A stretch of DNA of 7,061 bases from assembly GCA_048939465.1 (NCBI GenBank), contig JBHLPL010000102.1, positions 1 to 7,061 on the forward strand, read 5' to 3'. This DNA is from Promethearchaeota archaeon. GTDB lineage: Archaea > Asgardarchaeota > Odinarchaeia > Odinarchaeales > JBHLKK01. Position numbers and translations under genes: made by a program. Positions within the stretch are counted from its first letter, which is position 1; every line of letters starts with the position of its first letter. Positions 4,874 through 6,148 of the stretch are shown piece after piece. Under the pieces are notes generated by a model. That model saw only the letters and a list, made by a program, of their open reading frames with translations. It did no database searches and was not told where the DNA came from.

Positions 4874-6148
4874 ATGGGAAAGGAGGCCGATTTCGCAATA
4901 ATTAATGCAAAAGAGCTGGTGACTCTGAAGGACTCAAGTGACAAACCGAGGGTAAAAGATGCAATGAACGATCTGGGTATTGTCCAGGAAGGGGCCATTG
5001 CAGTGAAGGGTGAAAGAATAGTAGCTGTTGGACCTACGGACGAAGTACTGAGCGATCTTGAAAAAGGTTTCGAGACTATAGATGCTTCCAACAAGTTGGT
5101 GACGCCAGGACTAATCGATCCACATGTACACTTAGTCTTCGCAGGTACGAGAGAGCATGAACTCGAGGCAATGGCTGTAAAGGGTGTACCCTATTTAGAG
5201 ATTAAGGCTCGAGGAGGAGGAATGCCAACATCTCTCAAGAAAACGGCTGAGACAAGTTTTCAGGAGCAGCTCAGAATAACTTCCCGAATACTCGACAAAA
5301 TGCTCATTCACGGTACCACGACAATCGAGGCGAAAAGCGGCTATGAGATGACTTTCCAGGGTGAAATAAGGCAGCTAGAGATAATCCAGACTCTCAACAA
5401 GGCTCACCCTATCGATCTGGTTCCGACCTTCTGCGCGCAGGGGATTCCTCCAGAATATGAGAATAGAGTGGATGATCTAACAGATGAGATTGTAGAGAAG
5501 TGGATACCAGAAATAGCCAGAAGAGGCCTGGCCGAATATGTGGACGTGTTCTGCGAAAAGGGCTACTTCAACCTTGAGCAAACAAGGAGAATATTGGAAG
5601 CGGGAAGAGAATACGGCATGAAGCTGAGAAACCACTGTGATTGGCTTGCTTACAGCGGCGGTGCCAGACTGGCTGCAGATATCGGAGGAGTGGTCTCGGC
5701 GGATCATCTCATTTTCACTCCAATGGAGGATGTTGAGGCATTGAGGGAACAAGGCACGATAATAGTATTCTTGCCAACTTCTCCATTCTGTTATGTAGGG
5801 AAATACGCTAACGCCCGTGGGATCATTGAAAGGGGGGCGGCAGTTGCTTTGGCAACAGACGTGAGCGCAGCCAACCTCTGCGAGTCAATGCAGATGATGA
5901 TGACGCTTGCTGTTCTTCGGATGAAGATGACAACTGCAGAGGCTCTCACTGCTGCCACGATTAATGCAGCCCACTCAATAGAACGAGGGCATGAAGTAGG
6001 ATCACTGGAGACAGGAAAGAAAGCAGATATTGTTATATTTGACGCTCCAAATCACAAGTTCTTCGCGTACAATTATGGAATCAATCTCGCGGAAAAAGTC
6101 TTCAAGAATGGAAAGTTGGTAGCGGAAAGTGGAAGACGAGTAAGCTAA
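4874..6148 (+). CDS. hutI: Imidazolonepropionase (HutI)-family amidohydrolase with a non-canonical substrate pocket, 424 aa
   Basis: HutI scaffold: LVTPGLIDPHVHLVFAGTREHE (HxH metal motif plus Arg), GVPYLEI..RGGG, HGTTTIEAKSGY, DVFCEKGYF, SADHL, ALATD, EAL.AATINAA, GSLETGKKAD, YNYGIN..EKVFKNG. Start set at 4874 (SD present; matches the HutI N-terminus as recalled) rather than 4805. Family assignment is strong; activity is uncertain. Confidence 0.88.
   Translation: MGKEADFAIINAKELVTLKDSSDKPRVKDAMNDLGIVQEGAIAVKGERIVAVGPTDEVLSDLEKGFETIDASNKLVTPGLIDPHVHLVFAGTREHELEAMAVKGVPYLEIKARGGGMPTSLKKTAETSFQEQLRITSRILDKMLIHGTTTIEAKSGYEMTFQGEIRQLEIIQTLNKAHPIDLVPTFCAQGIPPEYENRVDDLTDEIVEKWIPEIARRGLAEYVDVFCEKGYFNLEQTRRILEAGREYGMKLRNHCDWLAYSGGARLAADIGGVVSADHLIFTPMEDVEALREQGTIIVFLPTSPFCYVGKYANARGIIERGAAVALATDVSAANLCESMQMMMTLAVLRMKMTTAEALTAATINAAHSIERGHEVGSLETGKKADIVIFDAPNHKFFAYNYGINLAEKVFKNGKLVAESGRRVS

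Follow-up and report, generated by a model that had tools for sequence, protein, structure and literature searches.

A HutI subfamily with an apparently rebuilt ring-side pocket and a glutamine synthetase-like partner in the histidine degradation clusters of Asgard archaea and Bathyarchaeia

The open reading frame (ORF) at positions 4874-6148 of a 7,061-nucleotide stretch of DNA (hereafter the window), which is contig C36 of a 1.96-Mb metagenome-assembled genome (MAG) of an Asgard archaeon with a completeness of 91%, encodes a protein of the imidazolonepropionase (HutI, EC 3.5.2.7) family, as judged by its profile, fold, catalytic residues and position in the pathway. Systematic comparison with canonical HutI supports the view that this protein and its close relatives, designated here as HutI*, form a functionally distinct HutI subfamily, in which the catalytic site and the clamp for the substrate tail are kept and the pocket facing the ring and its amidine appears to be rebuilt. 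The HutI* cluster probably represents an undescribed ending of the histidine pathway. The reading that we favour, with chances that seem evenly balanced, is a variant histidine pathway independent of folate, in which HutI* opens the ring and its altered handling of the amidine, together with a ligase encoded next to HutI*, yields an N-formyl amino acid. New here are the sequence diagnostics of HutI*, the mutual exclusion between HutI* on one side and canonical HutI and FTCD on the other, and the exchange of the two types at a syntenic site; no description of a HutI linked to a glutamine synthetase, or of the HutI* pocket variant, was found in the literature searched.

Residues kept and residues changed in HutI*

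Against the TIGR01224 model, HutI* of the window scored 384.9 bits (384.4 bits in the genome search), above the equivalog cut-off of 298.15, and its sequence is 41% identical to that of Bacillus subtilis HutI (2BB0/2G3F). Its AF2 (AlphaFold 2) model, with a predicted local distance difference test (pLDDT) score of 96.3, shows the HutI fold of a TIM barrel and a small beta-sandwich, with template modelling (TM) scores of 0.92/0.95 to 2G3F and 0.93/0.96 to 2BB0 and a root-mean-square deviation of 1.5-1.6 A. When the structures from Agrobacterium tumefaciens (2GOK/2PUZ) and from an environmental source (2OOF/2Q09) are included, the TM scores range from 0.85 to 0.96. As in these enzymes, the HxH/His/Asp metal site, the His of the SADH motif, the tail clamp and the hutH-hutU context are all present.

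Alignment to B. subtilis HutI bore out all residues and coordinates given in an initial annotation of the window, including its statement that the metal ligands and the Arg and Tyr residues holding the propionate tail are retained. The retained residues, all on the + strand, are as follows.

5123..5131, +: H84-V85-H86, metal ligands (B. subtilis H80 and H82); the middle T-to-V change is clade-specific
5150..5152, +: R93 (B. subtilis R89), carboxylate clamp
5192-5194, +: Y107 (B. subtilis Y102), clamp
5342-5344, +: Y157 (B. subtilis Y152), clamp
5633..5644, +: H254 (B. subtilis H249), metal ligand, followed by C255, D256 and W257
5705..5707, +: H278 (B. subtilis H272), catalytic His of the SADH motif
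5858..5875, +: D329 (B. subtilis D324), metal ligand and general base, followed by V-S-A-A-N

The residues H84, H86, H254, D329 and H278 are invariant across all the variant and canonical sequences compared. The Arg/Tyr/Tyr set, which corresponds to R89, Y102 and Y152 of B. subtilis and forms the carboxylate clamp for the propionate tail, is kept as well, R93 being invariant. This role, and the ligand contacts referred to below, are reportedly described in the paper on the 2G3F structure. HutI* thus has the full mononuclear metal site (H84/H86/H254/D329), together with the catalytic H278 and the tail clamp.

HutI* does not show, unlike canonical HutI, the ligand-contact features H185, E/Q252, DxNP and SGYGL. 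The following substitutions, numbered first in HutI*, were identified.

5174..5176, +: A101 in place of a conserved R/K (R/K96), clade-specific
5222-5224, +: M117, GGGI to GGGM (I112M), clade-specific
5345..5350, +: E158-M159 in place of the near-invariant G153-L154 (SGYGL to SGYEM)
5438..5440, +: Q189 in place of the ligand-contact H185 (TFCAQG motif)
5477-5479, +: L202, Y to L, clade-specific
5642, +: W257 in place of E/Q252
5792-5794, +: Y307, L to Y, clade-specific
5858..5875, +: S331-A332 in place of N326-P327, V-S-A-A-N standing for x-N-P-G-S

In a column-by-column comparison with a canonical set of 157 HutI sequences, archaeal Thermoplasmata HutI among them, 11 positions were fixed within the HutI* clade and fixed differently in canonical HutI (T81V, R/K96A, I112M, G153E, L154M, H185Q, Y to L202, E/Q252W, L to Y307, N326S and P327A). 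The canonical residues are highly conserved, H185 in 99% of the 157 sequences, E/Q252 in nearly all, and N, P, G and L of the two motifs in 96%, 97%, 91% and 99%, respectively. Within the HutI* clade, Q189 and W257 are invariant, and D-x-S-A and S-G-Y-E-M replace D-x-N-P and S-G-Y-G-L. The combination of YEM, AQG, HxDWL and TDxSAA(N/D) was detected in all 120 nearest proteins and at all 59 related genome loci, and in 0 of the 157 canonical sequences. Over the 54 columns that are at least 90% conserved in canonical HutI, HutI* proteins deviate at a median of 9, canonical proteins at a median of 1 (95th percentile, 5). A pattern of this kind is not noise or chance drift. The initial annotation had pointed out that all the ring-contact motifs differ from canonical HutI, and had named their being common in ordinary archaeal HutI as an objection; the differences proved to be fixed in the clade and absent from the canonical set, Thermoplasmata included. 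The one-residue deletion before AH, which had been counted among these differences, is not diagnostic, because canonical Thermoplasmata HutI share it.

Canonical HutI varies between E and Q at position 252 and between D, E and N at position 251, so that the side chains lost in HutI* are hydrogen-bond partners and not indispensable acids. From crystal contacts and the titles of Protein Data Bank (PDB) entries, H185 and E/Q252 are presumably the contacts to the ring and amidine of the ligand. The place of the changes in the sequence and the 2G3F contacts suggest that the substituted side chains point towards the N1-C2-N3 half of the imidazolone ring. For annotation, the two types can be told apart by YEM / AQG / HxDW / DxSAA together with an upstream glutamine synthetase-like (GS-like) gene.

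The HutI* group is sharply separated from other HutI. In a cluster search of 1.84 billion (1.84e9) representatives at 50% identity, the whole group fell into a single cluster (77% identical to the query), the next match being at 48%. A search of 185,579 species genomes gave matches from 88% down to 66% identity and then a jump to 46% or less, and the identity between HutI* and canonical HutI is 48% at most. In the phylogenetic tree, HutI* formed one clade with a Shimodaira-Hasegawa-like approximate likelihood ratio test (SH-aLRT) support of 100 on a stem of 0.62 substitutions per site, with internal branches of 0.01-0.2; the terminal branches of canonical HutI in the same tree have a median of 0.66. 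The clade takes in Hod-, Heimdall-, Thor-, Hermod- and Atabeyarchaeia as well as Bathyarchaeia, MAGs labelled 'Nitrososphaerales' and a small number of bacteria (Aminicenantes, Clostridia and Krumholzibacteria). The bacterial members are nested inside the clade, indicating transfer.

The GS-like partner and the replacement of HutI and FTCD

The genes of the window are arranged as follows.

2..532, +: hutU (urocanate hydratase), 3' end; Urocanase_C, 257 bits; the hutU model outscores the thiourocanate hydratase models
610..2148, +: hutH (histidine ammonia-lyase); TIGR01225, 654 bits against a cut-off of 539
2349..3254, -: Ftr paralogue, divergently transcribed, the variable third partner; Pfam FTR and FTR_C
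3481..4812, +: GS-like ATP-dependent ligase, upstream partner of HutI*, as judged by adjacency and by 38% identity to the genome's own GlnA (contig C61)
4874..6148, +: HutI* gene, 424 amino acids (aa), variant imidazolonepropionase-family amidohydrolase; TIGR01224, with the identity to 2BB0 given above
6517..7059, +: PQQ-type/BamB-like beta-propeller protein, start only, running past the end of the window

A GS-like gene lies directly upstream of HutI*, on the same strand, in 52 of the 52 HutI* loci for which upstream DNA is available, as against 0 of 21 canonical loci, and its products are 59-81% identical to that of the window. Among 301 sampled Asgard genomes, HutI* was detected in 21 and the GS-like gene in all 21 of these; in the only further genome with a GS-like gene, the gene is cut by the contig end. 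About 190 of the 301 genomes contain canonical HutI (41-49% identical) and no GS-like gene. The HutI*/GS-like pair remains intact even where hutU, hutH and the third enzyme change place or are swapped for others. This partner, which is the most informative feature of the locus, and the replacement of canonical HutI plus FTCD described below were both missed in the initial annotation. Prediction of a complex between the GS-like protein and HutI* gave a score of 0.00, which counts neither for nor against binding.

The GS-like protein is about 45% identical to type I-alpha glutamine synthetase (GSI-alpha; TIGR00653; 4LNI, 7TDP, 8OOL) and scores 461 on the GlnA model, just above the cut-off of 429. 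It is, however, a second copy besides the genome's own GlnA (508.6 bits), and HutI* comes next to it in every case. Of the glutamine synthetase residues, those for metal and ATP, R321 and the E327 flap are retained. Unlike the studied GSI-alpha enzymes, the GS-like protein has D-V-S-K-S-D for R-I-E-E-S-D at the Asp50' latch, YGAG for NGSG at the Asn264 loop and GWEAP for GYEAP at the flap, all being conserved in the clade. In glutamine synthetase these loops close over the amino group of the substrate and the ammonium/amide site. The genome's own GlnA carries PGNGMH, not NGSGMH, at the Asn264 loop, which weakens the argument from a lost Asn264; the GS-like protein has no Asn at either place. 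The argument from the loop differences is accordingly only moderate.

The conserved ligase could also be taken to act before HutI*, amidating the propionate of imidazolonepropionate, so that HutI* opens imidazolone-propionamide to N-formimino-L-glutamine and the third enzyme frees glutamine. The loss of R/K96 (A101) and the presence of Glu158 beside the tail-binding Tyr157 would suit a neutral carboxamide tail, and the GS-like protein, in which the metal, ATP, R321 and E327 residues are retained, lacks an Asn in the Asn264 loop; a hutG-like gene at one locus (L018, described below) stays below the equivalog cut-off. Such a reversed order is nevertheless improbable. Arg93, the main carboxylate ligand, is invariant, and most of the changed positions (Q189, W257, S331 and A332) are on the ring side and not on the tail side. 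Imidazolonepropionate is labile, and an ATP-consuming step before ring opening would bring no obvious benefit. Furthermore, Ftr and the M20 hydrolases found as third partners suit a formyl group better than a formimino group.

The closest canonical relatives of HutI* (47-48% identical) are located on Bathyarchaeia-type contigs with the gene order FTCD-HutI-HutU. In Bathyarchaeia, both this cassette and the HutI* cassette (GS-like and HutI* genes with the divergent Ftr paralogue) sit between the same five flanking genes, encoding RLI, asparaginase_2, THUMP, CGI-121 and phosphoribosyltransferase proteins (51-68% identity). The HutI* cassette has thus replaced the FTCD-HutI-HutU cassette at a single chromosomal site in Bathyarchaeia. 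The loci concerned are the following.

L094:7097-11051 and L095:2493-8008, compared with L011:7373-11272 and L038: cassette swap

Within the Asgard genus g32, FTCD is present in 9 of the 9 genomes with canonical HutI and in 0 of the 11 with HutI*. In the genome as in the pathway, the HutI* module takes the position of the FTCD route (PF07837/PF02971). In contrast to that route, the one-carbon (C1) unit would go to an Ftr paralogue of the tetrahydromethanopterin (H4MPT) type, or be released by M20 hydrolysis, instead of going to tetrahydrofolate, and there is an extra ligase.

In five genomes of the Asgard family f27 (mostly genus g44, one g64), the canonical HutI gene contains one in-frame stop, TAA in four genomes and TGA in one, which could represent a shared pseudogene, recoding or a split gene.

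G278:C309:3605-4858: f27 HutI with in-frame stop
G284:C243:13453-14706: f27 HutI with in-frame stop
G127:C8:9080-10342: f27 HutI with in-frame stop
G260:C33:19532-20785: f27 HutI with in-frame stop
G242:C39:54867-56123: f27 HutI with in-frame stop

Pathway genes and third partners

No second HutI above the cut-off was found in the window's genome or in five other genomes tested, including four closed chromosomes. Each of the 21 HutI* Asgard genomes gave exactly one HutI-family match, and none of the 301 Asgard genomes contains both HutI* and canonical HutI. Both hutU and hutH are present in four of the five other tested genomes, and most loci have them close to HutI*. No hutG above the cut-off, no hutF, no FGase (PF05013) and no FTCD was detected in the window's genome or the other archaeal genomes tested. 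The HutF model, TIGR02022, gave no match at the HutI* locus, where it was not among the 25 best NCBIfam hits; in the window's genome its only match is an unrelated one of 60 bits on contig C118.

These results bear on the initial annotation, which took HutI* for an enzyme of altered substrate. The distinct subfamily and the rebuilt ring-side pocket stood up to analysis. The first proposal for its activity did not, namely a HutF-like deimination of formiminoglutamate with the ring being opened by a second, canonical HutI: no such HutI with canonical motifs was found in the window's genome, in the five other genomes or alongside HutI* among the 301 Asgard genomes. The Ftr and M20 partners do suggest an N-formyl intermediate, and the lack of a hutF homologue would leave room for such an activity, but the protein is not HutF by profile. 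In the deaminases of subtype III, the glutamate of an HxxE motif after strand 5 acts as a proton shuttle. The corresponding motif in HutI* is H-C-D-W, the glutamate being replaced by Trp. HutI* as a HutF-like deiminase alone is thus very improbable. HutI* does share the amidohydrolase superfamily with HutF of the five-step Pseudomonas pathway, and removal of an N-formyl or N-acyl group apparently ends the variant pathway as well; FGase is, however, lacking, and the ATP-dependent enzyme of the GS family has no counterpart in the Pseudomonas route.

The third partner differs among the lineages. In the window and 20 other loci it is the divergently transcribed Ftr paralogue, in Hod-, Heimdall- and Thorarchaeia an aminoacylase-type M20 enzyme (TIGR01891/CpsA-like), and in the 'Nitrososphaerales'-labelled loci an ArgE/DapE-type M20 enzyme plus an HDAC-fold hydrolase. 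Both the Ftr paralogue and the M20 N-acyl-amino-acid hydrolases fit an N-formyl intermediate.

The third option of the initial annotation, a hydrolase for hydantoin-5-propionate (or thiohydantoin-propionate) in an oxidative or ergothioneine-type branch, found no support in the gene context. Canonical HutI binds a hydantoin analogue as an inhibitor, according to the title of PDB entry 2Q09, and the M20 family includes N-carbamoyl-amino-acid hydrolases. HutU, however, scores as urocanase and not as thiourocanate hydratase, the linked M20 enzymes match the aminoacylase/CpsA and ArgE/DapE models and not a carbamoylase, Ftr handles formyl and not carbamoyl groups, and the loci of these anaerobic hosts contain no oxidase. 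We rejected this branch on the HutU and M20 family assignments, and regard it as barely credible.

Three loci labelled 'Nitrososphaerales' or 'uncultured archaeon' carry the HDAC-fold hydrolase gene (PF00850, 266 bits, no NCBIfam match) between HutI* and hutH, as a second conserved hydrolase, of unassigned role, beside M20 (L048:11517-12500, L054:13233-14207 and L061:11384-12406). The closed 1.3-Mb Bathyarchaeota chromosome G003, the source of locus L030, keeps the GS-like and HutI* genes with no hutH match and only a 252-aa urocanase fragment (C1:1158122-1158748); this could reflect a pathway in decay, or a use of the pair that does not depend on HutH and HutU.

Ring opening and the fate of the amidine nitrogen

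Three endings of histidine degradation are known from textbooks, through HutG, through HutF plus FGase, and through FTCD. Imidazolonepropionate is the product of HutH and HutU, and with HutI* as the sole amidohydrolase of the right family, HutI*, or the pair, must consume it. Since HutI* and the GS-like gene replace canonical HutI and FTCD, HutI* itself must act on imidazolonepropionate or a derivative. The intact metal site, catalytic His and Asp and tail clamp imply the same binding of the tail and the same attack by metal-bound hydroxide. As in HutI, then, HutI* would hold imidazolonepropionate by its propionate tail while metal-bound hydroxide attacks the ring. The amidine half (N1-C2-N3) would be treated differently, with Q, W and S in place of H185, E/Q252 and N326 and an additional Glu beside Y157.

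Ftr and M20 enzymes act on formyl or N-acyl groups and not on amidines, whereas FTCD and HutG act on the formimino group. Because the former have taken the place of the latter, the amidine nitrogen must leave or move upstream of Ftr or M20, and no candidates for this step other than HutI* and the ATP-dependent ligase are conserved. The two may jointly dispose of, or relocate, the amidine nitrogen at the expense of ATP, the C2=N3 bond being cleaved by either of them, and N-formyl-Glu or N-formyl-Gln would be delivered to Ftr or M20. In a more detailed scheme, which we put forward as tentative, the two enzymes would form an ATP-dependent module in which imidazolonepropionate is opened and its amidine nitrogen is moved or captured, for instance through conversion of formiminoglutamate or its ammonia into N-formyl-L-glutamine. 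The broader idea of the initial annotation, that altered chemistry feeds a formyl-handling enzyme, is plausible but unproven.

An N-formyl product could be reached by HutI* in a single hydrolytic step if C2 and not C4 of the ring were attacked, giving N-formylisoglutamine for deformylation by Ftr or M20, as also listed in the initial annotation. The amidine-facing acid apparently shifts from strand 5 (E252 to W) to strand 2 (G153 to E), which could re-orient the ring. Such an attack, however, would leave isoglutamine without any conserved amidase in the loci to act on it, would give no natural role to the universally linked GS-like ligase, and would not fit the hutG-like gene of locus L018 or the FTCD of an Aminicenantes genome. 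We consider it quite improbable.

Several observations weigh against an N-formyl product of HutI* and the ligase. HutI* still scores above the hutI equivalog cut-off, and with position 252 already being E or Q in characterised HutI, canonical chemistry with release of formiminoglutamate is possible. The assignment of the 11 positions to the pocket lining is based on sequence position and crystal contacts. With one basic residue fewer and one acidic residue more, the pocket is not obviously suited to binding the dianionic formiminoglutamate for another round of hydrolysis. At locus L018, HutI* is directly followed by a hutG-like gene of the arginase family, which scores 200.9 bits against a cut-off of 229, and the HutI* genome of Aminicenantes contains FTCD, the only such case among the genomes tested; both fit a formimino rather than a formyl product. 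Finally, the HutI* clade is monophyletic and has partly been spread by transfer, and since kin share features, the counts of co-occurrence between HutI* and the GS-like gene represent largely one evolutionary event.

These same points would be accommodated if HutI* were an ordinary imidazolonepropionase that releases free N-formimino-L-glutamate, its substitutions being lineage-specific, the GS-like protein being a nitrogen-assimilation paralogue that travels with it, and Ftr, M20, the hutG-like protein or FTCD taking formiminoglutamate. The passing of the TIGR01224 cut-off by the sole HutI of genomes with HutH and HutU, the intact catalytic residues and tail clamp, the canonical variation at 252 (E/Q) and 251 (D/E/N), the hutG-like neighbour in L018 and the FTCD in Aminicenantes are all in agreement with this explanation. 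It appears unlikely, however, in view of 11 near-invariant positions, two of them ligand contacts, that changed along a single long stem and have since stayed fixed in all the phyla concerned. Nor would it account for the strict adjacency of the GS-like gene while every other hut gene shuffles, for the low identity of the GS-like protein (only 38%) to housekeeping GlnA with a different Asp50' latch and Asn264 loop, or for aminoacylase-type M20 and Ftr partners that act on N-acyl or formyl groups and not on amidines.

If an N-formyl amino acid is indeed formed by HutI* and its ligase, histidine would be converted to glutamine plus a formyl group, which the Ftr paralogue passes to tetrahydromethanopterin or an M20 deformylase sets free. 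To the three known ways of processing the C1-N unit of histidine this would add a fourth, hitherto undescribed, with a wide distribution among Asgard archaea and Bathyarchaeia. In metabolic reconstructions of these lineages, the gene is annotated plainly as imidazolonepropionase and the pathway is left open-ended. For MK-D1, Imachi et al. (2020; PMC7015854) draw only the conversion of histidine to urocanate and to formyl-glutamate. How archaea that use H4MPT or lack folate end their histidine catabolism can now be tested with three or four recombinant proteins.

The start of HutI* was assigned to ATG 4874, because homologues are 423-424 aa long and GGAGG is located 7 nt upstream; an alternative start at 4805 was rejected in favour of it. 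The beta-propeller ORF at 6517-7059 is not a conserved neighbour of HutI* in other loci. The DNA datasets listed for the locus are mangrove and sediment metagenomes, and no RNA dataset is listed. At L018, the hutG-like gene is located at 2790-3803, and a serine hydroxymethyltransferase gene follows hutH at 7089-8381. A bacterial contig (L096:5306-16551) carries a further divergent HutI-like gene, P0184, with deviations at 10 of the 54 conserved columns; it lies in a cluster with hutH, an M20/M28 peptidase gene, two urocanase genes and several aminotransferase genes, and may belong to a different hut-like pathway.

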